NCBI GenBank assembly: GCA_035530075.1
Contig: DATKVM010000005.1
Location: 22,823-86,822, forward strand
From: Patescibacteria group bacterium
GTDB taxonomy: Bacteria > Patescibacteriota > Microgenomatia > UM-FILTER-40-11
Direction of reading: 5' to 3'
DNA: 64,000 nt
The notes beneath the pieces are model-generated. The model ran no database searches and was not told the DNA's origin. It saw only the letters and a program-made list of their open reading frames with translations. How positions within the stretch are numbered: the stretch's first letter is position 1; every line of letters begins with the position of its first letter. Shown here one piece after another: positions 3,954 to 46,882 of the stretch. A program made the position numbers and the translations under genes.

Positions 3954-5279
3954 TTAAACCCGACAGGGTAATTTTGATTGAAGCATAACGATGTTTTCCG
4001 CCCCTTGCCGAAAAAGATTGGGTAACTGATAGGCTTTATGCATGGAATCCGCTAATTTTCCTTCGGAGATTAAATTCACAATTTGCCTCCGGGCTTTCCT
4101 GACCTTCAAAACTCGGCCAATGCCATTTCTGATAAATCTTTTTCTGATATTTTCTTCCCACTCGCCCCAAGGAGTCAAAAACAACAAGAAACAACCCGCC
4201 ACTGCCGCATCATAAGTCATATCACCGGACGGTTTAGTGATAAATCCCTGAGCCCAAGGAAAAACGTATTTAATCAGATTTTCGTTGGCGTCAATAATTG
4301 AATCTTCATACAAAATGCGAATAACCGCTTCTTCATTATCCAAATTGCCAATATTAATATGCTGCTTTCGGGCAAAATCTTCAAAAAAATCTCTAAAATC
4401 ACGATGTGTCCCCGCGTAAAGAAAAAGCCTTATTCTTTCCGGCGCTCTTAATAACGGAGCCAGCGACTGAAGGACTTTTTTAATTTCCCCTAAGTTGGTC
4501 CCTAAGCCGCCAGTAGTCACGGCCAGATTAATCGGTTTTCCTTTTTCAATCTTTTTTTCTTTTTTTCCTATCTTTATGATTCTTGGATCAACAGGCGGAC
4601 CGCTTACGACAACCTGATCGTCGGCAATGGTCTTTTTCTGCCTTTGCGCCTCTTTCATAAAATCTTTTTTGGTCTCTTCATCAAAAACGGCATAAATTAT
4701 GTTTTCGGAAGGCAAACAGCCCAGATATTGAGGCCTGACATGAGGATCAGTTACTACCTGCACTACTTTCTTCCCGTTCTTAACCAAAATATTACCCGCT
4801 TCATAATGAAGGGAAATAATAGGGCAACGGGTCTCCTCGGTCAGATACAAAAGCGGTTCAACTACCGCCTCGGTTATGGGAAGTTTATTTCTCACTATCG
4901 TTTCGACTTTATTCTTGAGCCACTTAAGTGTCCGGTGTCTGGCTATTAAACGCCCAACCGTTTCTATAAGTTCAACTTTGCCCCAATTTCGCTCACTAAC
5001 ATAATTAGTCGGATCGGAGAAATGAGCGGTTTTCCTCAGTTTTTTTGCCGCCTCATAAACAGCTACCGCCATCGAATAATGGGCCCGGGAAAAAACTACA
5101 TCGTCCGCCGTATGATACAAAGCCCGATAGCGGTGGGCCAATTCTTTCCTAAAGGTCGCCGAAACGGTCACAATGGGCACCTGAACGGGATGGAATAAAG
5201 TTCTTTCTTGCTCCAAGGCCGAGAGTAAATCCATTTTTTCCCTATCTAAAGATTTGTTCGGTTCCGCCAAAGTGCTCAT
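3954..5279 (-). CDS. GT-B fold glycosyltransferase, GT28/MGDG-synthase-like (putative glycolipid synthase)
   Basis: C-terminal domain begins INLAVTTGGLG and contains ITKPSGDMTYDAAVAGCFLLF, typical of MurG/MGDG-synthase C-terminal halves. Confidence 0.45.
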   Translation of the reverse strand: MSTLAEPNKSLDREKMDLLSALEQERTLFHPVQVPIVTVSATFRKELAHRYRALYHTADDVVFSRAHYSMAVAVYEAAKKLRKTAHFSDPTNYVSERNWGKVELIETVGRLIARHRTLKWLKNKVETIVRNKLPITEAVVEPLLYLTEETRCPIISLHYEAGNILVKNGKKVVQVVTDPHVRPQYLGCLPSENIIYAVFDEETKKDFMKEAQRQKKTIADDQVVVSGPPVDPRIIKIGKKEKKIEKGKPINLAVTTGGLGTNLGEIKKVLQSLAPLLRAPERIRLFLYAGTHRDFRDFFEDFARKQHINIGNLDNEEAVIRILYEDSIIDANENLIKYVFPWAQGFITKPSGDMTYDAAVAGCFLLFLTPWGEWEENIRKRFIRNGIGRVLKVRKARRQIVNLISEGKLADSMHKAYQLPNLFRQGAENIVMLQSKLPCRV

Positions 5280-39598: not shown

Positions 39599-40228
39599 TT
39601 ACCTTTTTTTGAGGATTTTCGCAACCGTTTCTTCAATTGTCTCGAAAGAAAAGCCTTTTTGAGCCAAAGCGGCATAGAGCTTTTGCTTAACTTCCCCGGG
39701 TGGCAAATTTGTCAACCGCACCAGCTTTTTTTGAGCCAGTTTTTCCGCCAGCTGAATATCGACTTCCTTCGGCCGCTCCTCCGCCAAGAGTCGTTTAATC
39801 AACTCCTCGGCAATTCCTTTGCGCCGCAATTCATATTTAACCAAACGCACCCCACTCGGCCGGAAAGTCGAACGCTGTTCAATCCACCATTGAGCAAAAG
39901 CTTCGTCATCAATAAGTTTTAGCGCCTTTAACTTTTGCCTGACCATCTTGCGCGTCTCTTCGCCAACTTTTTTCCGAAGCAGATATTCGTTAATTTCAAA
40001 TTCGCTTCGGGGCCGAAAAGAAAGAAATTTAAGCACTTTATCAAAGATGCTCCCTAGCTCACTTTCTTTAATTAGTTCTTCCACTCTCTCTCGGGAAATT
40101 TCTTGATCGGCGTGCAAACCCTCCTTCACTAAAGTTTCGGAGGGTAAGGAAAAGGCAAACTTGCCGTCTAGAAAGATATTGAATTTCTCTTTTTTCTTTT
40201 GCGGTTTAATCGCAGTAATAACGGGCAT
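39599..40228 (-). CDS. recX: recombination regulator RecX
   Basis: Immediately downstream of recA; RecX-like three-helix repeats. Confidence 0.7.
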   Translation of the reverse strand: MPVITAIKPQKKKEKFNIFLDGKFAFSLPSETLVKEGLHADQEISRERVEELIKESELGSIFDKVLKFLSFRPRSEFEINEYLLRKKVGEETRKMVRQKLKALKLIDDEAFAQWWIEQRSTFRPSGVRLVKYELRRKGIAEELIKRLLAEERPKEVDIQLAEKLAQKKLVRLTNLPPGEVKQKLYAALAQKGFSFETIEETVAKILKKR

Positions 40229-41341
40229 TTAGGCTTCTTCCATTTCTCCCCCAATGACTTTCTCTTCGACTGCTTTCCCGCTTTTAACTTCTTTCCAAAT
40301 TTTTTCTTCAATTTCCTTAATCATCTTTTGATTTTCCCCTAAGAAGGAAATTGCTGCCTGCTTGCCCTGGCCAAGCATCGTTTCTCCATAGCGGTAAAAA
40401 GCTCCGGATTTGGAGATAATTTCTAAATCCACCGCGACATCAAAAATTCCCGCCGTCCTGGAAATCCCACCATTCGCCAAAATATCAAACTCAGCCACTT
40501 TAAAAGGCGGGGCGACTTTATTTTTAACGATTCTCACCCGGTGGCGGGAACCAATCGCTTCATCGCCTTCTTTAATGGTTTCTATTTTACGGCTGTCCAT
40601 TCGCACCGAAGCGTAAAACTTCAAGGCCAGTCCGCCCGAAGTCGTTTCCGGATTGCCAAACATCACCCCGATTTTTTGGCGCAATTGGTTAGTAAAAACA
40701 ACGATCGTCTTGGACTTAGAAATAGCCCCCGTCAGTTTGCGTAGAGCTTGGGACATTAGTCTTGCTTGAACCCCTACCATAGCGTCTCCCATTTCTCCTT
40801 CAATCTCAGCTCTTGGAACCAAGGCCGCCACCGAATCAACCACAATCACATCCAGAGCGCCGCTACGAACCAAAGTTTCCACAATTTCCAAAGCCTGCTC
40901 GCCCGTATCCGGCTGGCTGACTAAAAGCTCATCCAAATTTACACCCAGTTCTTGCGCCCAGATAGGATCAAGTGCATGCTCAGCGTCAACAAAAGCCGCC
41001 GCTCCCCCGGCTTTCTGCGCTTGAGCAATAATAGAGAGAGCCACGGTAGTTTTACCGGAAGCTTCCGAGCCGTAAATTTCCACAATTCTTCCGCGGGGAA
41101 CACCGCCTATCCCTAAAGCAATATCTAAAGCGATTGAACCAGTAGAAATAACCTCCGCTCCCATCTTCCCGGTTGGGCTTTCGCCTAAACGCATAATCGA
41201 ACCTTTACCATATTGCTTTTCGATTTGTTCCATGGCTATCTTAATGGCTTGAAGTTTCCCTGAAGCATTATCGGTCATCTTGCCTCCCCCTTGGCCCGCC
41301 GTAGTTTTAACGAAGGCGGCTTCATCGCTTTTGGTCTTCAT
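40229..41341 (-). CDS. recA: recombinase RecA
   Basis: Walker [11 protein letters not shown]1/L2 loops, and near-identity to the RecA core throughout. Confidence 0.95.
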
Positions 41342-41543
41342 AGTAAACTCTCCAAAACAAAAATCAACTTATAAAGAAAATTACTCAGCCAAATTCACTT
41401 ACATTCTGGCACAGAAAATGATAAAATTCAAGGGCAAGACAGTGTCTCGTTCGAAAAATCAATCATTTACATTCGACCAGAAGTAAAGAGGATTGAGAAC
41501 AGGAAGATTTTTGCAAAGAAACCCTCGGTTTCTTTGCATGAAA

Positions 41544-41616
41544 CGGGGAATGGCGCAGTTGGTAGCGCGCACGCATGGGGTGCGTGAGGTCGTGGGTTCA
41601 AGTCCCGCTTCCCCGA
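41544..41616 (+). tRNA. tRNA-Pro (anticodon GGG), no encoded CCA
   Basis: CGGGGAAUGGCGCAGUUGGUAGCGCGCACGCAUGGGGUGCGUGAGGUCGUGGGUUCAAGUCCCGCUUCCCCGA. Has a C1-G72 acceptor, anticodon loop AUGGGGU with G37, and T-arm GGUUCAAGUCC. Confidence 0.8.
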
Positions 41617-41649
41617 CTAGAAAAAATAATTTGATAAAACCAAAAGACT

Positions 41650-42372
41650 ATGGCTTCTGAGGTAACACCCGTTAAAAACGATGAGGTAGAGCCCGTAATA
41701 GAGTTGGTAATCAGGCCGCCAACAGCCGATGAAGAATATGACAGGGTAGCGTCCTATCTTCGCAAGCTGCCATGGTATAATGAAAACGGATACAAGTTGC
41801 CTCTTCCGACTCATCCAGCGTTCCAGCAATTAGCTCAACCTGGCGCAGACCTTGCCGTGTTAGACCTGGAAGAAACGAGAAGGCTATTCGCCCAAGAAGT
41901 ATATGACCCAACTGCCTATGAAGCCCGCCTAAGAGCAGTAGAAGCCGACCGCTTTGTTATTGAAGAGGCATATTTAAGGTTTCGGGAATTAAATAAACGT
42001 TGGGGGGTTAAAGTTTTTCCCCGATATGAAATTACCCTCACTCAATTTGGTGCGGGTGGTAGCTATGATTCGGAAAAAGGGAGAGTCATTATATTGACCA
42101 GTTCTAGGCATTCACCAAAGAGAATAGCGATACATGAAGGCGTACATATCGGTATAGAGGACGGTATTGTTCAAAAGTATGGACTTTCGCACTGGGAAAA
42201 GGAAAGAACCGTAGATAAGATTTGTAGTATAAGATTTGGCGATTTACTTCCCAACTACGACTTCCAAGCTCGAGGAGATATAAGGATTGACCCATATGTT
42301 ACTTCTGAAACAATCAGACAACTACCACAAGCCATGGAAAGATACGTTAAAGATTTTCCCCGCACTCAATAA
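41650..42372 (+). CDS. hypothetical protein with a possible HExxH zincin-like motif, immediately after tRNA-Pro
   Basis: IAIHEGVHIGIEDG contains HExxH. Nothing else is recognisable. GC looks higher than in neighbouring genes. Confidence 0.35.
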   Translation: MASEVTPVKNDEVEPVIELVIRPPTADEEYDRVASYLRKLPWYNENGYKLPLPTHPAFQQLAQPGADLAVLDLEETRRLFAQEVYDPTAYEARLRAVEADRFVIEEAYLRFRELNKRWGVKVFPRYEITLTQFGAGGSYDSEKGRVIILTSSRHSPKRIAIHEGVHIGIEDGIVQKYGLSHWEKERTVDKICSIRFGDLLPNYDFQARGDIRIDPYVTSETIRQLPQAMERYVKDFPRTQ

Positions 42373-42390
42373 ATATACCCTTTGACAGTT

Positions 42391-42410
42391 TGGTCGCCCT
42401 GAGGCGACTA
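42391..42410 (+). terminator. hairpin terminator GTCGCC-CTGA-GGCGAC after the 240 aa gene
   Basis: Perfect 6 bp stem with tetraloop, followed by a T-rich tract. Confidence 0.4.
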
Positions 42411-42420
42411 ACCTATCTAT

Positions 42421-42484
42421 TTTAAATACTTCTCGATATTCTCCTGGTGTTCTTTATAAGTCTTGGCTGTATGGATTTGTTTGT
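42421..42484. repeat. degenerate copy of the mltG 3' end; upstream member of a 64 bp imperfect direct repeat pair (partner 43939..44002)
   Basis: ~87% identical over ~62 bp. The reverse complement encodes NKQIHTAKTYKEHQENIEKYL, the same C-terminal peptide as mltG, and the differences are mostly synonymous. Confidence 0.6.
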
Positions 42485-42517
42485 TTAGAAAGTAAAATAA
42501 TATGAGATAATCGTTTT

Positions 42518-43933
42518 ATGAGTGGGCTTTTTGGAGTTGTTGATAAGAAAAATTGTCCTAGAATTTTATTTTACGGCACCGATTATCAATCTCATTTGGG
42601 AACTCAAAAAGCGGGCTTAGCAATCATTAATCGTCGAATCGAGCGAGCTATCCACAATATCTCCACTTCCCAGTTCAAATCAAAATTTATTGAAGAGATC
42701 TCTTTAATGAAAGGGGCGCTTGGCATTGGCGTAATCAGTGATTCCGACTTCCAACCGATTATTATTTCTTCCTCTTTTGGAACATTTGCCCTGGCAACGG
42801 CTGGCTTTTTAGCCAATAAAAATGAGCTGGCTAAAGAGATTATGAAAGATGGAGGAAGTTTTTCAGAGTTAAGCGGCGGTGAAATTAATGCCACTGAAGT
42901 AGCTGGCAAAATTATCGCTCAAAAAGGCAATTTAGTAGAAGGAGTTAAAGCCCTTTTTGAAAAAATGAAGGGTTCGTTTAGCCTTTTGATTTTGGCCAAA
43001 GAAGGAATTTATGCTGCCCGAGATAAATTTGGCCGAACCTCGCTTTCGGTGGGTAAAAATGATAAGAGTTTAGCCGTCACTTCGGAAACTTGCGCTTTTC
43101 CCAATCTTGGCTACCAAAAGATAAAGGAGCTTTCCCCCGGCGAAATTGTCCTTTTGAGCAAAAGTGGCCAATTAATAGGAAAAGAGAAGAGTTCTTCTCC
43201 AGAAAAAGAAAAAATTTGTGCTTTTCTTTGGATTTATACTGGCTATCCTGCCTCTTCCTATGACGGGTTTTCAGTGGAAGCAGTCAGAGAACATTGCGGC
43301 GCTAATTTGGCTAAGGAAGATAGTGCTAAAGCCGATTTTGTCACGGGTATTCCCGATTCAGGCATTGCTCACGCTATCGGTTATGCCATGACTTCAGGTC
43401 TTCCTTACCGCCGCGCTTTGGTTAAATACACCCCTGGTTACGGTCGGAGCTACACTCCACCTTCGCAGGAAACCAGAGACTTGATCGCCCGAATGAAGCT
43501 TATCCCGATTAAAGAAATTATTGAAGGCCAGAAAATCATTATCTGCGACGATTCTATTGTCCGTGGCACTCAGCTTAAAAGTCAGGCAATTGAAAAGCTT
43601 TGGCAATGTGGGGCCAAGGAAATTCATGTCCGGATTGCTTGCCCGCCCTTGATGTTCCCCTGCCCCTATCTTCTTTCTACTCGCACCAAGAAAGAATTGG
43701 CTGCCAGAAGGGCAATCAAAAATACGTTTGGGGGTAGAAAAAATAGGCGAGAAATTAAAAACTTCTTGAGCGAAAAAGACCCTGGATATCAAAAGATGGT
43801 AAATTACCTGCGGCAGGAACTCAATGTCACTTCACTTAAGTTTCAAACCGTAGAAAATATGATCAAGGCCATCGGTCTTCCCCAGCATCGCCTTTGCCTT
43901 TTTTGTTGGCTTGGCAATAACCATCAGCCTTAA
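42518..43933 (+). CDS. PurF-like amidophosphoribosyltransferase homolog with Ser in place of the Ntn catalytic Cys (probably glutaminase-inactive) and an intact PRTase domain
   Basis: Aligns with B. subtilis PurF along its length (SETCAF, ADFVTGIPDSGI, PRPP loop IIICDDSIVRGTQLK). The N-terminus is MSGLFGVV rather than (M)CGI/VxG. The HNGN oxyanion motif is replaced by TAGF. Confidence 0.7.
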   Translation: MSGLFGVVDKKNCPRILFYGTDYQSHLGTQKAGLAIINRRIERAIHNISTSQFKSKFIEEISLMKGALGIGVISDSDFQPIIISSSFGTFALATAGFLANKNELAKEIMKDGGSFSELSGGEINATEVAGKIIAQKGNLVEGVKALFEKMKGSFSLLILAKEGIYAARDKFGRTSLSVGKNDKSLAVTSETCAFPNLGYQKIKELSPGEIVLLSKSGQLIGKEKSSSPEKEKICAFLWIYTGYPASSYDGFSVEAVREHCGANLAKEDSAKADFVTGIPDSGIAHAIGYAMTSGLPYRRALVKYTPGYGRSYTPPSQETRDLIARMKLIPIKEIIEGQKIIICDDSIVRGTQLKSQAIEKLWQCGAKEIHVRIACPPLMFPCPYLLSTRTKKELAARRAIKNTFGGRKNRREIKNFLSEKDPGYQKMVNYLRQELNVTSLKFQTVENMIKAIGLPQHRLCLFCWLGNNHQP

Positions 43934-43934
43934 A

Positions 43935-44948
43935 TCATTTCAAATACTTTTCAATATTTTCCTGGTGTTCTTTATAAGTTTTGGCGGTGTGGATTTGTTT
44001 ATCGGCCGAATGAAGATAATAAAAAGCTTCCGTCTCGGCCGGATAAACCGCCGCTTTAATCGCAGCCAGGCCTGGGCTGCAAATCGGTCCCGGCGGCAGC
44101 CCCTCATGAAGGTAAGTATTATATAGCGAGCTGATTTTTCTGACCACGCCAGCAGGCAAAAAAGGCCAGAAATTGAAGTTATCAGGGTCAGTGGTTTTCT
44201 GTTTTAAATCTTCCGTAACCATCGCATACTGGACCGTTGCATCAATTTCCAACCTCATCCCTTTATTTAAGCGGTTCCAAATAATCCCAGCGATAATGGG
44301 TTTGTCGGTCTCACCCCCACTTTCCCTTTCAATTAAAGAAGCAATTTTCAGGGCGGTATCATTTCTGACATTCTGAGCCAAAAGGTCTTTTTGTAATTGA
44401 GCGTCAAACTTTTCGTTGAAATTAACACGGAGTCGGCTGATAACTTCCGCCGGGTCGGCATCAACATCGACAAGATAAGTGTCGGGAAAAAGATAACCTT
44501 CCTCCGCCGCTAAAATAAAACCTTGAGCAATTCCGTCTGACCAGCCCAAAACCTTTTGCAAAATTACCGCCGTCTGCTCCTTTCTTTTCCCCGGCGGGAT
44601 CAGTACCCACTTCTGATAAGGGCCAGCCGCTAAAGCTTGGGCCAACTCATAAGCATTCATACTTTTAGAAAGTAGATAGCCCCCGGGAGCAATCCTTTGA
44701 CCTGGCTCGGGGCAATCCTTTTTTTGCCAACAAATAAATTCTAAAACCAACTGAAAAATTCGGGGAGACTTCAAGAAGCCTTTTTCTTTCAAAGCAGTGA
44801 CTGTTTGCTCCTCCCGACTATTAAGCGGGACAATAAACCGTTCCTCTTCCCAGCTTTTTGCCGGCCCAAGGAACAAAAAGAAAAAGATGCCCGCCACCCC
44901 CAGCAGCAAACTAACTAAAAGCAAAGCAATAAAATAGCCAATTTTCAT
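43935..44948 (-). CDS. mltG: endolytic murein transglycosylase MltG (YceG-like)
   Basis: N-terminal TM helix and the YceG-like domain. Confidence 0.8.
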   Translation of the reverse strand: MKIGYFIALLLVSLLLGVAGIFFFLFLGPAKSWEEERFIVPLNSREEQTVTALKEKGFLKSPRIFQLVLEFICWQKKDCPEPGQRIAPGGYLLSKSMNAYELAQALAAGPYQKWVLIPPGKRKEQTAVILQKVLGWSDGIAQGFILAAEEGYLFPDTYLVDVDADPAEVISRLRVNFNEKFDAQLQKDLLAQNVRNDTALKIASLIERESGGETDKPIIAGIIWNRLNKGMRLEIDATVQYAMVTEDLKQKTTDPDNFNFWPFLPAGVVRKISSLYNTYLHEGLPPGPICSPGLAAIKAAVYPAETEAFYYLHSADKQIHTAKTYKEHQENIEKYLK

Positions 44949-44992
44949 TCCTCCCAGTTTAACATTTAAGGCTCTTTTTGTATAATGGGGCC

Positions 44993-45417
44993 ATGGATGT
45001 TGAAAGAAACACGCGCCGCTTTATTTGTTTGGGAATTGTCCTTAATGAAAAAATGAAGTCTTAATGGTCCGCCGAGTCAAAGAAGAAATGGGTGAGAAGA
45101 ATCGAGTCTTGAGCTGGGCTTTCCCGGGCGGTCGGCCGGAAGAAGGAGAAAGCCGAGGCCAGTGTGTTAAAAGGGAAGTTTTGGCCGAAACCGGTTACCA
45201 TGTTTCTCCTTTAAGAGAAATTTCTTTACGCTATCACCCTGATTTGCCGGTTATTATTGTTTACTTTCTTTGCCGCCTGGAAGAACCTCAGCCAATACAG
45301 GAACCGAGCGAGCCTCACGAAATTGCGGAAACCTGCTGGGTAAGAATTCAAGAATTAATGGCCCTAATTACAACTTCTCTTGACCCTCAAGTAGCTAAAG
45401 AATTAAAACTGGTTTAA
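44993..45417 (+). pseudogene. NUDIX hydrolase interrupted by a frameshift in an A6 tract (45048-45053)
   Basis: Frame 1 from the ATG at 44993 gives MDVERNTRRFICLGIVLNEKMKS*. Frame +1 continues with ...VLMVRRVKEE...FPGGRPEEGESRGQCVKREVLAETGY (Nudix box). An A7 tract would give one continuous ~140 aa Nudix protein. An extended -10 TGTATAAT lies at 44979-44987. Confidence 0.6.
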
Positions 45418-45418
45418 A

Positions 45419-45943
45419 TTACTCCCGGCAACAATCAATCGCCTTTTTAATTACTTCGCCCAGTTTGGCCATAAAGCTGTGAGTGCTGTCATTTTCAATT
45501 TCCTTTTCGACCGTCTTTTCCAAATCACCAGTTTTAAGAAGCTTTAAATTCAGTCCCCAGAAAAGCTCATAAAGAGAATGGGCCATTTGAAAATATTCCT
45601 TGGCCTCCTTTTTATCCCCTTTGCTTAAGCTTTTGGTACCCACTTCCAAAAGCCTCATTGACCCGGCCAACAAATGCTTGGACAAGCACCATTCTTCTCC
45701 CTCATAGTCCTTAATCAGCTTTTTCAAAAGCCCTTTGCGCATTTCCCGCACTTGATTCAAAAGCTCAAGGTAACCTTCTTTTTTGGTCTTGCCAAAAGTA
45801 AAGAAGAGATGCTCTTCGATGGAAATAAGATTCATTACCGCCACCGAAAGATCCTCTCCCGAAGAAAGGTCAAGTTTTTCGCCTTTTTCAGCCGCTTTAA
45901 CTTTCGCTAAGAGTTCCTGAATTTCCTTATCTTTGTTCATCAT
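45419..45943 (-). CDS. hypothetical protein
   Basis: ORF only. Confidence 0.35.
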   Translation of the reverse strand: MMNKDKEIQELLAKVKAAEKGEKLDLSSGEDLSVAVMNLISIEEHLFFTFGKTKKEGYLELLNQVREMRKGLLKKLIKDYEGEEWCLSKHLLAGSMRLLEVGTKSLSKGDKKEAKEYFQMAHSLYELFWGLNLKLLKTGDLEKTVEKEIENDSTHSFMAKLGEVIKKAIDCCRE

Positions 45944-46476
45944 TTAATTCCCAAACGACATAATTGAAAAGCAAAAGCCGTTGCAAAAATCAAAAAGAAC
46001 AAGGGGGCGACTACCCGCTGATAGGGAAAAAGCGCTTTCCCCGGCTCTTTTTTATTCAATTTTCGCAAAAGAAAATCGGTGCCGTAGCCTAGTAAAAAAG
46101 CCACCGAGCCAAAAATTATCCCTGAAAGTAGTTTATCATGACCGTGAATTTTGCAGGTGGGATGGCCGATAAAACCGGTTTGCTTTAAGCTCAAAACCGT
46201 GGTTATCCATAAAAAAGCCGAAAGTAGCCACTTAAACCCGCGAAAATCGAATCTTTTGAGGTATTTAGCGGTAGCCATCCAAAGTCCGAAAGAAAGCGTC
46301 AAGCCTCCTGCCCAAATGCCGATAATTAAATCATCGACTCCCAAATAATGAGATAAAAGCACCCCTCCGCCAATCGCCACCGTACAAACGGGACAAACCG
46401 CCTGGATGGGAGCCGCCGCCAGGAAGGCGAAGCCTAAAATCAAAAATGTCAGAGCAGCTAAGATAGTCAACATTCT
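45940..46476 (-). CDS. membrane protein with intramembrane CPVC motif (possible VKOR/DsbB-like thiol oxidoreductase)
   Basis: Start placed at the ATG at 46476 to avoid overlapping rpsI. Multi-TM, with CPVC and a HPTCKIHGHD loop. Confidence 0.3.
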   Translation of the reverse strand, partial: RMLTILAALTFLILGFAFLAAAPIQAVCPVCTVAIGGGVLLSHYLGVDDLIIGIWAGGLTLSFGLWMATAKYLKRFDFRGFKWLLSAFLWITTVLSLKQTGFIGHPTCKIHGHDKLLSGIIFGSVAFLLGYGTDFLLRKLNKKEPGKALFPYQRVVAPLFFLIFATAFAFQLCRLGIK

Positions 46477-46480
46477 TGTC

Positions 46481-46882
46481 TTACCGTTTCGGCGATTGCT
46501 TTCTCGCTCGCGCGCTCTGGGCCAAACCGAATTTCCTTCTTTCCTTTTCCCGCGGATCACGAGTCAATAAACCGGCCGACCGCAAAATTGGCTTGTATTT
46601 TTCGTCGGCGGAAACCAAAGCACGACTTAGACCTAAAACAAAGGCCCCCACTTGACCCTTTGGACCACCACCGGTAATTTTAGCGGTGGCATGGTACTTA
46701 CCAATGTTACTCGTCAATTCTAAGGGTCTTAAATAGGAAGGGGAAGGGATATCCTTGAAGTATTCCCCAATCGGCTTGGTGTTAATTGTCATCTCGCCCT
46801 TGCCCTTATACAAGCGAACTCGGGCAATGCTTCTTTTTCTTCGCCCAACTGCTGCTTGATAATCTTTTTTAGTTGCTACCAT
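46481..46882 (-). CDS. rpsI: 30S ribosomal protein S9
   Basis: Conserved S9 core, C-terminal ...RKQSPKR. Confidence 0.9.
   Translation of the reverse strand: MVATKKDYQAAVGRRKRSIARVRLYKGKGEMTINTKPIGEYFKDIPSPSYLRPLELTSNIGKYHATAKITGGGPKGQVGAFVLGLSRALVSADEKYKPILRSAGLLTRDPREKERRKFGLAQSARARKQSPKR

Follow-up and report, generated by a model that had tools for sequence, protein, structure and literature searches.

A PurF-like gene between two copies of the mltG 3' end in an uncultivated Microgenomates genome

In the genome of an uncultivated member of the Microgenomates (Patescibacteria; GCA_035530075.1, contig DATKVM010000005.1), of which a stretch of 64,000 nt was analysed (the window), a PurF-like gene lies between the functional 3' end of mltG and a second copy of that 3' end, which we call the relic. 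Comparison of the two copies supports their descent from two functional mltG alleles that differed between donor and recipient. We judge it moderately probable that the relic is a recombination scar, the old 3' end of mltG having been pushed downstream when purF arrived, in the manner of homology-facilitated illegitimate recombination (HFIR) or of C-terminal displacement. The event itself is of an ordinary kind and is well preserved. The features of the locus are as follows:

40229..41341, minus strand: recA, which closes the variable interval on its far side and is conserved (the identical gene of locus L001 matches Pfam RecA_N/RecA_C)
41544..41617, plus strand: tRNA-Pro(GGG) (ARAGORN; Rfam tRNA, 61.9 bits)
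41650..42372, plus strand: gene for an HExxH protein of 240 aa and zincin-like fold, a cargo specific to this lineage and located between tRNA-Pro and the relic
42390..42411, plus strand: terminator-like hairpin between the 240-aa gene and the stop codon of the relic (terminator scan)
42417..42482, minus strand: relic (copy 1), a displaced mltG 3' end of 21 intact codons plus TAG, with neither 5' part nor start codon
42483..42517, plus strand: spacer with the predicted purF promoter (promoter scan)
42518..43933, plus strand: PurF-like amidophosphoribosyltransferase homologue (Pfam GATase_7), enclosed by both mltG ends
43935..44000, minus strand: copy 2, the 3' end of the functional mltG (21 codons and TGA), lying 1 nt away from the stop codon of purF
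43935..44948, minus strand: mltG (YceG family), 337 aa (Pfam YceG, E = 1.7e-67; TIGR00247, 128.8 bits, cutoff 103.4)

The loci used for comparison are labelled L001, L008, L009, L010, L014, L090, L091, L170, L172, L174-L177, L180 and L181.

Two mltG ends and the junction with purF

The repeat search returned one direct repeat of 64 nt (42419-42482 and 43937-44000; 57 of 64 positions identical, spacing 1518 nt). On the minus strand the codon alignment runs over 42417-42482 and 43935-44000, where both copies encode KQIHTAKTYKEHQENIEKYLK followed by a stop codon: copy 1 ends in TAG (42417-42419), copy 2 in TGA (43935-43937). An earlier note on this DNA, made from the sequence alone, had described an imperfect direct repeat encoding the MltG C-terminus around purF. 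The repeat search, the codon alignment and the recurrence of the copies in other contigs all show this repeat to be real, and its location was right, although the coordinates were 2 nt too high and eight differences were counted where there are seven. Both copies occur in six of the seven contigs listed for this population, which come from at least three data sources, so the repeat is no assembly artefact; the seventh contig begins at purF.

All seven differences in the 63 coding bases (six transitions and one transversion) are synonymous third-position changes, with none of the 42 first and second positions and seven of the 21 third positions differing between the copies. The probability of all seven falling at third positions is 2.1e-4, and that of the peptide being kept after seven random substitutions is at most 7e-5. 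The differences are scattered over the full length of the repeat, which includes an identical stretch of 20 nt, and the strong similarity ends at the first K codon (K1). The relic lies on the same strand as mltG, keeps its stop codon and has a TAA in frame 11 codons further upstream. When the first 12 codons of the tail were back-translated degenerately, the two copies were the only matches in the 64 kb, with 0 expected by chance.

The 89% identity of the copies is uninformative on age, because random synonymous encodings of the same peptide differ from each other by only 10.6 nt on average, with a probability of 0.09 for seven differences or fewer. More generally, when short coding repeats consist of two-fold degenerate codons, a high nucleotide identity is no sign of recent origin. 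Copy 1 is no recent copy of copy 2, since their divergence is near saturation and the 7 nt that separate them equal the distances from copy 1 to the alleles of L181 (7 nt) and L091 (7 nt). The distance between the copies also matches that between mltG alleles of different genera. Because the changes are synonymous only and the distance is like that of alleles from distant genomes, the copies descend from two functional mltG alleles, and the earlier note's proposal of two alleles instead of the decay of a simple duplication is borne out. A donor or recipient allele near either copy was not found among the relatives; even the closest ones are 5-8 nt away over the 63 nt, a distance that says nothing about the donor because synonymous sites are near saturation.

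The window and L009 have an identical junction of relic, spacer and purF, GGATTTGTTTGTTYRGAAAGTA (K1 of the tail and the spacer). In L009 the relic represents another natural allele, KQIHTAKTYKEHLENIKKYLQ and a stop codon; its residues L13, K17 and Q21 are found in functional alleles of purF-less relatives. The two loci thus share a relic-purF junction but have different undamaged tail alleles and different downstream genes. A TTTGTTT at the junction and upstream of purF in L008 is not significant as microhomology (P = 0.15-0.57). Further on in L009 there is a weak in-register TATTAT, which may or may not be decayed mltG.

Within the spacer, the promoter scan predicts a -35-like TTTAGA (42484-42489) and an extended -10 element TGAGATAAT (42503-42511) 6 nt upstream of the purF ATG. 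The element ATGAGATAAT is conserved ahead of that ATG in the window, L009, L008, L090 and L177, and the rest of the spacer (42483..42517) is common to the window and L009 only. Over purF itself the nucleotide identity of the window and L009 is 88% and rises to 96-98% in a tract at 43040-43520, and L009 is 94-95% identical to L091 over 42800-43040. In the flanks, the window and L009 are 69% identical in tRNA-Pro and 67-72% in the MltG C-terminus. The purF gene is therefore a recombination mosaic relative to L009 and L091, with a phylogeny at odds with that of its flanks.

Two further roles for the relic were considered and rejected. As a translated small ORF it would have to overcome a 1-nt indel, a TAA and the lack of a start codon in the window (in L009 the corresponding ORF is ATG-initiated and 33 codons long). 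As a structured RNA or purF riboswitch it fares no better: Rfam finds tRNA only, folding gives a z-score of -0.78, and no stable helix of note appears apart from the terminator hairpin at 42390..42411, which is the main stable helix when 42373-42517 is folded.

The mltG-recA interval in relatives

Two lineages (L175 and L181) have an empty site, in which the mltG stop codon is followed after 3-6 nt by the convergent tRNA-Pro and then by recA; the core proteins of L175 are 80-89% identical to those of the window. The tRNA-Pro belongs to this ancestral, empty arrangement. An empty target site in relatives is expected of integrative elements and equally of every recombination model. RecA is 82-91% identical in amino acid sequence across all relatives with synteny kept. 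Between the end of mltG and tRNA-Pro/recA the contents differ from lineage to lineage, and the interval is a hot spot of gene turnover, with the following cargo:

Window: the 240-aa zincin-like gene
L009: a 65-aa and a 180-aa gene
L008/L091: nothing
L090/L180: an HNH_repeat gene
L174: a 300-aa gene and an HNH_repeat gene
L010: a GATase1 gene and an HNH_repeat gene
L014: four other genes

The purF gene adjoins mltG in five lineages (window, L009, L008/L091, L177 and L090), at spacings of 1, 1, 9, 15 and about 330 nt. A relic stands beside purF in two of the five, the window and L009, and the other three have no second copy there; no significant remnant was found in L008, in L177 or beside purF in L090. 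L090 does have a decayed match to the stop-proximal half of the mltG tail directly after its tRNA-Pro (P = 0.003-0.007). The tail ancestrally lies at that position, and the match is consistent with new material entering on the mltG side and leaving older tails in place. The earlier note held that finding both copies as the ancestral arrangement in related genomes would speak against an insertion. One relative (L009) does have both copies, and the arrangement is not ancestral.

Several other leads from the relatives were followed. Linkage of purF with the tail allele ending in IEKYLK and a stop codon, perfect in the first nine genomes, was rejected, as this allele occurs without purF in L181 and in many GTDB loci. 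Homologues of the 240-aa gene were of no use as a guide to the layout of a donor, their contexts being unrelated (HEPN/NTase and serine recombinase genes in L170, DnaB in L172). The hairpin region downstream of the relic in the window showed no homology to the DNA downstream of mltG in L174 and L176. The locus has recA as a neighbour.

Origin of the displaced tail

Under the explanation that we favour, the ancestral layout would have been mltG, a convergent tRNA-Pro a few bases past the mltG stop codon, and then recA. DNA from a relative, carrying the 3' part of mltG and a convergent purF, would have been taken up and would have paired with the resident mltG as a homologous anchor, while its other end joined just upstream of the last 21 codons of the resident gene. 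Copy 2, the imported tail, would thereby have become the end of the functional mltG, and copy 1, the resident tail, would have come to lie beyond purF together with its downstream terminator and neighbouring gene. The direction, with copy 1 resident and copy 2 imported, is the one we infer; a homologous anchor with an illegitimate join would be the mechanism, and transformation presumably the route of uptake. The purF segment would then have mltG-homologous DNA on both sides, and ordinary RecA-dependent recombination could transfer it to relatives or renew the relic with sequence from functional alleles. Such a second step appears to be required by the shared junction and the undamaged relics, and it would explain how the window and L009 came to share a junction with different intact tails and different downstream genes. 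Acquisition from a relative by recombination, as the earlier note had suggested, fits the comparative data. It also tells against the scar that L008/L091, L177 and L090 have no relic beside purF, which means either that the relic postdates purF or that three deletions have occurred. As a homology arm, moreover, the relic is short for recombination to be efficient, at 63 nt and about 85-90% identity.

The absence of a relic from three purF lineages is accommodated if purF stood beside mltG first and the relic came later with the cargo. In that case copy 2 would be resident and copy 1 imported: a purF-less relative would have supplied DNA with its mltG tail, terminator, 240-aa gene, tRNA-Pro and recA, and this DNA would have recombined via its tRNA-Pro/recA side and joined illegitimately at its other end just upstream of the purF promoter. 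The lineage closest to the window by tRNA-Pro (97%) and RecA (89%), L008/L091, has the purF-mltG pair and neither relic nor cargo, and the relic is seen only where cargo separates tRNA-Pro from purF (window, L009). The cargo gene ends 20-45 nt from the relic stop codon with a hairpin between them, as expected of a former convergent pair, and purF-mltG adjacency occurs in the more distant L090 and L177 and is therefore older than the relic. Yet no homologue of the 240-aa gene was found beside any mltG, and the junction common to the window and L009 with different cargo again demands a later recombination step. The tail remnant of L090, moreover, adjoins tRNA-Pro with the cargo on the mltG side, which fits entry from the mltG side. 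We regard this order of events as unlikely.

The HNH_repeat genes of the interval raise the prospect of a homing-endonuclease hot spot. A free-standing HNH_repeat endonuclease-like gene, since lost from the window, would cut near the junction of the mltG end and tRNA-Pro, and break repair from relatives would copy in adjacent DNA and yield mosaics and partial duplications. An HNH_repeat (PF18780) zinc-ribbon gene does lie near tRNA-Pro or recA in the divergent L010, L090/L180 and L174; that of L090 weakly matches a phage HNH endonuclease family (phrog_1271, E = 9e-8), and the tRNA-Pro genes of L174 and L090 are 96% identical where MltG is only 65% identical. The gene is absent, however, from the window, L009 and L008, domain searches identified no nuclease catalytic domain in the HNH_repeat protein, and no cleavage site is known. 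We consider this decidedly improbable as the origin of the relic; it is compatible with a recombination scar and not exclusive of it.

A direct repeat at a gene 3' end that flanks an insert, with the inner copy keeping the gene intact, is also what integrative elements at gene or tRNA 3' ends leave as attL and attR, and the earlier note had raised an integrase-type element of this kind. The purF gene would then be a small mobile unit that attaches at the final ~64 nt of mltG and relies on a recombinase encoded elsewhere, as for IMEX elements or integron cassettes. A single gene flanked by direct repeats, the identical relic-spacer junction in two hosts with differing flanks, and the 20-nt identical stretch as a possible core would all suit such a unit. 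In contrast to integrative elements, the "element" here is a single gene, and the genes within 6 kb either side (ABC2 membrane, HU, RNase Y, RecX, RecA, 240-aa zincin-like, PurF-like, YceG, NUDIX, ribosomal/RpoA genes and two hypotheticals) include no recombinase domain, integrase, Xer-like gene or transposase; the earlier note had advised a search for integrase or recombinase remnants nearby. Three of the five lineages with purF at this place have no second copy beside it, and the spacing varies from 1 to about 330 nt. Neither an inverted repeat nor an attC-like structure was found at the ends. The tRNA-Pro already stands in the ancestral empty site and is unduplicated; a search of the whole window found no partial copy of its 3' end. 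The insert is internally mosaic, as is typical of homologous exchange. A site-specific origin is thus very improbable.

The larger decayed element that the earlier note read into the neighbourhood does not hold up either, as tRNA-Pro is part of the empty site and the 240-aa gene is one cargo among several alternatives. No composition anomaly was seen in the region or the insert, and this HExxH gene, described as GC-rich, has a GC content of 0.41-0.46, equal to that of its neighbours.

We give very little credence to a local duplication of the mltG end (replication slippage, or tandem duplication of purF plus tail and then deletion, with later decay or intragenomic gene conversion): it is the usual source of direct repeats 1.5 kb apart, and two sites (ACT/ACC and CAC/CAT) group the copies by genome and not by type, but decay should hit all codon positions (observed, 0/42 first and second, 7/21 third), recent conversion would leave long identical tracts whereas the differences span the whole repeat, and the copies are as far from each other as from the alleles of other genera.

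Known systems and the PurF-like product

The recombination scar finds its nearest parallels in two known processes. HFIR is defined for natural transformation (PMC3240628) and known from Acinetobacter, S. pneumoniae and P. stutzeri. There as here, incoming DNA would be anchored by homology at one end (here mltG) and a foreign gene joined without homology at the other; in both, a recombinase gene is unnecessary, the homology boundary is abrupt, and donor and recipient alleles have diverged. Classic HFIR, in contrast, usually deletes recipient DNA adjacent to the anchor, whereas here the join inside the anchor gene would duplicate 63 nt; the event is also reconstructed here from genomes of uncultivated bacteria, with a candidate junction microhomology that is not significant. 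Within the Patescibacteria, natural competence and homologous recombination have been shown in Saccharibacteria (PMC10633639), competence in that group only.

Anchor-mediated insertion leaves displaced 3' fragments or orphan genes (PMC5361080), and C-terminal displacement has been described for rhs genes (PMC2935791, as cited by PMC5361080). As in rhs, CDI and T6SS effectors, a new 3' end and its linked gene would have taken over a conserved gene body, and the old 3' end persists downstream in the same orientation without its 5' part. The displaced tips of those systems, unlike the one here, specify toxins that differ from one another, and they are maintained with immunity genes. At the mltG locus the two tips encode one and the same stretch of 21 residues from a housekeeping transglycosylase, the linked gene is metabolic and convergent, and the orphan tip has no apparent selective role.

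A bolder possibility, which we think distinctly unlikely, is that the relic makes purF a portable, recombinase-free cassette between two copies of an exceptionally conserved housekeeping 3' end. If so, host RecA alone could insert or excise purF at the mltG end of any related Microgenomates genome, and each transfer would turn the tail of the new host into the next relic. That would account for relic alleles that are "fresh" and host-specific although the junction is shared. The homing-endonuclease-like gene found in the same interval in relatives might supply the breaks that drive the exchange. Should the relic act as a second homology arm in this way, the locus would be a simple natural example of cassette mobility by RecA only.

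The locus is a base-level record of the gain or swap of a single metabolic gene in streamlined, uncultivated Patescibacteria. The apparent route is recombination with relatives at a fixed hot spot, from an essential cell-wall gene to tRNA-Pro/recA, without mobile-element machinery.

The product of that metabolic gene matches B. subtilis PurF (1gph) with E = 4e-64 and scores 224.7 bits against TIGR01134, the equivalog model of glutamine PRPP amidotransferase, below its cutoff of 350. The N-terminal Cys is missing, as Ser2 aligns with the Cys1 nucleophile of mature B. subtilis PurF, and 112 of the 120 closest homologues have MSG[LIVF]FG at the N-terminus. In the alignment to 1gph, the PRPP-binding loop DDSIVRGT is present, and the four Fe-S cysteines of the B. 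subtilis-type 4Fe-4S cluster are kept at the positions of C236, C382, C437 and C440.

The repeat and its surroundings

A repeat search of positions 40000-46500 returned a single strong direct repeat, 42419-42482 and 43937-44000, with the two 64-nt copies lying 1518 nt apart and identical at 57 positions. When aligned by codon on the minus strand, copies 1 and 2 alike encode KQIHTAKTYKEHQENIEKYLK followed by a stop codon, TAG in copy 1 (42417-42419) and TGA in copy 2 (43935-43937). Copy 2 is the true end of a 337-aa YceG/MltG gene (Pfam E = 1.7e-67; TIGR00247 above cutoff). Copy 1 has neither a 5' part nor a start codon, and an in-frame TAA is found eleven codons upstream. A degenerate back-translation of the first 12 codons matched only the two copies in the window, with 0 matches expected by chance. 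Both copies are carried by 6 of the 7 assembled contigs shown for the window's population, and the seventh contig begins at purF.

Features of the locus in the window
Left side of the locus, minus strand: RNase Y, RecX and RecA, in that order
After RecA, plus strand: tRNA-Pro(GGG), the 240-aa gene and the PurF-like gene (purF, 42518-43933)
42417-42482, minus strand: copy 1, the mltG 3'-end relic upstream of purF
After purF, minus strand: MltG, ending in copy 2 (43935-44000)
45064-45417, plus strand: NUDIX gene, between mltG and two hypothetical genes
Beyond the NUDIX gene: the two hypothetical genes, then S9, L13, L17, RpoA and S4 (S9 to S4 on the minus strand)

By the source names of its closest proteins and its closest GTDB loci, the window's genome is assigned to Patescibacteria/Microgenomates, near Shapirobacteria. 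Against B. subtilis PurF, the PurF-like protein gives a 394-residue alignment (E = 4e-64) in which its PRPP loop and all four Fe-S cysteines are retained. Its TIGR01134 score (224.7) falls short of the cutoff (350), and it has Ser at the position of PurF's catalytic N-terminal Cys nucleophile. The start MSG[LIVF]FG is present in 112 of the 120 closest homologues (Patescibacteria, Actinomycetota). In some homologues a PurN-type formyltransferase domain (PF00551) is fused to the protein. The purF ATG lacks a Shine-Dalgarno sequence and is preceded, at a distance of 6 nt, by an extended -10-like TGAGATAAT (region 42503-42520) that is kept in five lineages (the window and the related loci L009, L008, L090 and L177). 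This motif appears to be the purF promoter, and the arrangement suggests a leaderless mRNA. The 240-aa protein is a member of a rare family in which the HExxH...E...D motif is invariant, and a zincin-like fold is confidently predicted for it.

Within 63 coding bases the copies differ at 7, all of them synonymous third positions. The probability of all 7 differences falling on third positions is 2.1e-4, and, even under a strong transition bias, 7 random substitutions would preserve the peptide with a probability of at most 7e-5; the divergence therefore built up under coding constraint. The 89% identity of the copies is no evidence for a recent origin. The tail peptide, i.e., the last 21 codons of mltG, uses mostly two-fold degenerate codons, and two random synonymous encodings drawn from this genome's codon usage differ by a mean of 10.6 nt (probability of 7 or fewer, 0.09). 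Copy 1 is 7 nt from copy 2 and equally 7 nt from the tails of the related loci L181 and L091, and copy 2 is 5 nt from L181 and 6 nt from L090. Overall MltG identity to the window is 62-65% for L090 and L181, and 70% full-length (about 80% over the C-terminus) for the L091 lineage. Because copy-to-copy and copy-to-relative distances are alike, the copies are as far apart as distant relatives' alleles. A simple local duplication with decay is excluded, as is recent gene conversion. An earlier note had read the copies as two mltG alleles, correctly in view of the synonymous-only differences and this allele-level distance; its description of the repeat was otherwise accurate, with coordinates 2 nt too high and a count of eight differences rather than seven.

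Empty and occupied sites among relatives

In L175, whose core proteins are 80-89% and MltG 72-77% identical to the window's, a convergent tRNA-Pro 3' end lies within a few bases of the mltG stop and is followed by recA. The same arrangement is found in L181 (MltG 65%), with a tail peptide identical to the window's. This empty arrangement is the simplest state and is probably ancestral. Every other lineage has different content between the mltG stop and tRNA-Pro/recA.

Content of the interval between mltG and tRNA-Pro/recA
L174: 300-aa gene and HNH_repeat gene
L010: class-I GATase gene and HNH_repeat gene
L014: nuclease, methyltransferase, NUDIX gene and MBL-fold gene
L090/L180: HNH_repeat gene and purF
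L008/L091: purF alone
L009: 65-aa and 180-aa genes and purF
Window: 240-aa gene and purF

On the other side of mltG, the NUDIX gene is present in the window, L010 and L012 and absent in L090, L174, L175, L176 and L181; that side is therefore variable too. In the L009 cargo (161-866) the 65-aa and 180-aa genes overlap, in a layout like that of a toxin-antitoxin pair. The 180-aa product carries an FIDTN motif that recalls PIN domains; Pfam gives no match for either protein, and PHROG none for the 180-aa one.

Five lineages (window, L009, L008/L091, L090/L180 and L177) have purF convergent with mltG, at spacings of 1, 1, 9, 15 and about 330 nt. Other Shapirobacteria-like genomes have purF (about 67-70% identity) beyond RNase Y, on the far side, and none of 80 GTDB mltG loci has purF adjoining mltG. 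An intact second tail beside purF is found in the window and L009 only. In L090, directly after tRNA-Pro (4035-4065), AAATACTTCTTGCAATCTTCGGGTTTTCTT matches the stop-proximal half of mltG tails over 30 nt with one indel and several mismatches (P = 0.003-0.007 against shuffles), at the place where empty-site genomes have the mltG tail. Judged by this match, the segment looks like a second, decayed tail relic at the ancestral tail position and supports the idea that old tails stay behind.

In the window and L009 alike, the relic is followed by the same 35/36-nt spacer and then the purF ATG, so this junction has a single origin. On the left side of the relic they have nothing in common, with unlike cargo and tRNA-Pro genes of 69% identity; the window's tRNA-Pro is 97% identical to that of L008. 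Right of purF, the MltG C-termini are 67-72% identical. PurF itself is closest between the window and L009 (89% aa, 88% nt), with four-fold-site identity of 0.78 vs 0.57 for the window and L008. In sliding comparisons of purF, the window and L009 reach 96-98% nt identity over 43040-43520 (other pairs 79-87%), L009 and L091 reach 94-95% over 42800-43040, and the 3' end is uniformly divergent. This mosaic indicates that purF was exchanged among these lineages by homologous recombination and has a history unlike that of its flanks.

The L009 relic encodes KQIHTAKTYKEHLENIKKYLQ and a stop, with three amino-acid differences, L13, K17 and Q21, all found in functional alleles of purF-less relatives: the tails of L174, L175 and L010 have HLENIKKYLE, and YLQ is the ending in L011 and L014. 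At the DNA level the L009 relic is closest to the L175 tail. No first- or second-position change in the relics departs from natural alleles, where several per relic would be expected had they been decaying since the junction formed; by this measure the junction looks older than the relics. L009 also has a faint in-register TATTAT to the right of the K1 codon, which could be chance or a further, more heavily decayed stretch of the relic.

Probable origin of the mltG 3'-end relic

The relic is best read as a scar of recombination, in an interval that is a hot spot of gene turnover. On this reading the conserved body of mltG runs on into a new 3' end, the linked purF comes next, and the old 3' end lies beyond purF with its orientation kept; copy 1 is still followed by its former convergent neighbour and terminator hairpin. 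Incoming DNA anchored in mltG would have brought the new 3' end and purF, and a non-homologous join inside the anchor gene would have left the old 3' end beyond purF. Homology-facilitated illegitimate recombination (defined in PMC3240628) is expected to give the same anatomy when the non-homologous join falls within the anchor gene. A parallel is the "C-terminal displacement" that PMC5361080, with reference to PMC2935791, describes for rhs and T6SS effector loci and that leaves orphan 3' fragments downstream.

After such an insertion purF would be bracketed on both sides by mltG-homologous DNA, and ordinary double-crossover recombination could then transfer it into a relative, whose own tail would become the stop-proximal part of the new relic, with the spacer junction inherited. 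We infer this transfer as a second step; it would explain why the window and L009 share a junction but have undamaged relic alleles specific to each host and unlike cargo, and why the purF tree is incongruent. In cultivated Saccharibacteria, both natural competence and homologous recombination have been demonstrated (PMC10633639). The event is of a known kind, and what is unusual is its clean preservation, in a poorly studied phylum.

Alternatively, purF may have been resident, as in L008, and the relic imported with the 240-aa gene from a purF-less donor via the tRNA-Pro/recA side. This reading agrees with relics being confined to loci that have cargo between tRNA-Pro and purF, and with a purF-mltG adjacency that is older than the relic; we consider it less likely than displacement of the resident tail. 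No compared tail is close enough to copy 1 or copy 2 to settle the direction, because synonymous sites are near saturation.

Divergent lineages have a zinc-ribbon gene with the "homing endonuclease associated repeat" PF18780 (HNH_repeat) between mltG and recA, next to either recA or tRNA-Pro (L010 10161-11063, minus; L090 4081-4929, plus; L174 8966-9682, minus). Its product may be homing-endonuclease-like and stimulate exchange at this interval, and the L090 copy weakly matches a phage HNH endonuclease family. The gene is absent from the window, and domain searches identified no catalytic domain.

The integrative element, one of the two readings offered in the earlier note, is not supported. 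A site-specific cassette is unlikely, given that the 6 kb on either side of the locus contain no recombinase gene, whether integrase, transposase or other, that 3 of the 5 occupied sites have no second copy beside purF, and that the purF-mltG spacing varies. The GC of the insert (0.36-0.46) is like that of its surroundings, and the 240-aa HExxH gene, previously called GC-rich, is not so by measurement.

Upstream of tRNA-Pro in L008, an 82-nt unit is duplicated 118 nt apart (2713-2794 and 2831-2912). It contains a hairpin whose copies differ on both stem arms with pairing kept (ATCTTCGAG..CTCGAAGAT vs ACTTTCGGG..CCCGAAAGT). The unit has GATTTTTGCAAAGAAACC at its end, and this sequence is also found before tRNA-Pro in the window (compare 41490-41543) and L009. 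L175 has a similar hairpin between tRNA-Pro and recA. The unit may be a structured or regulatory element.
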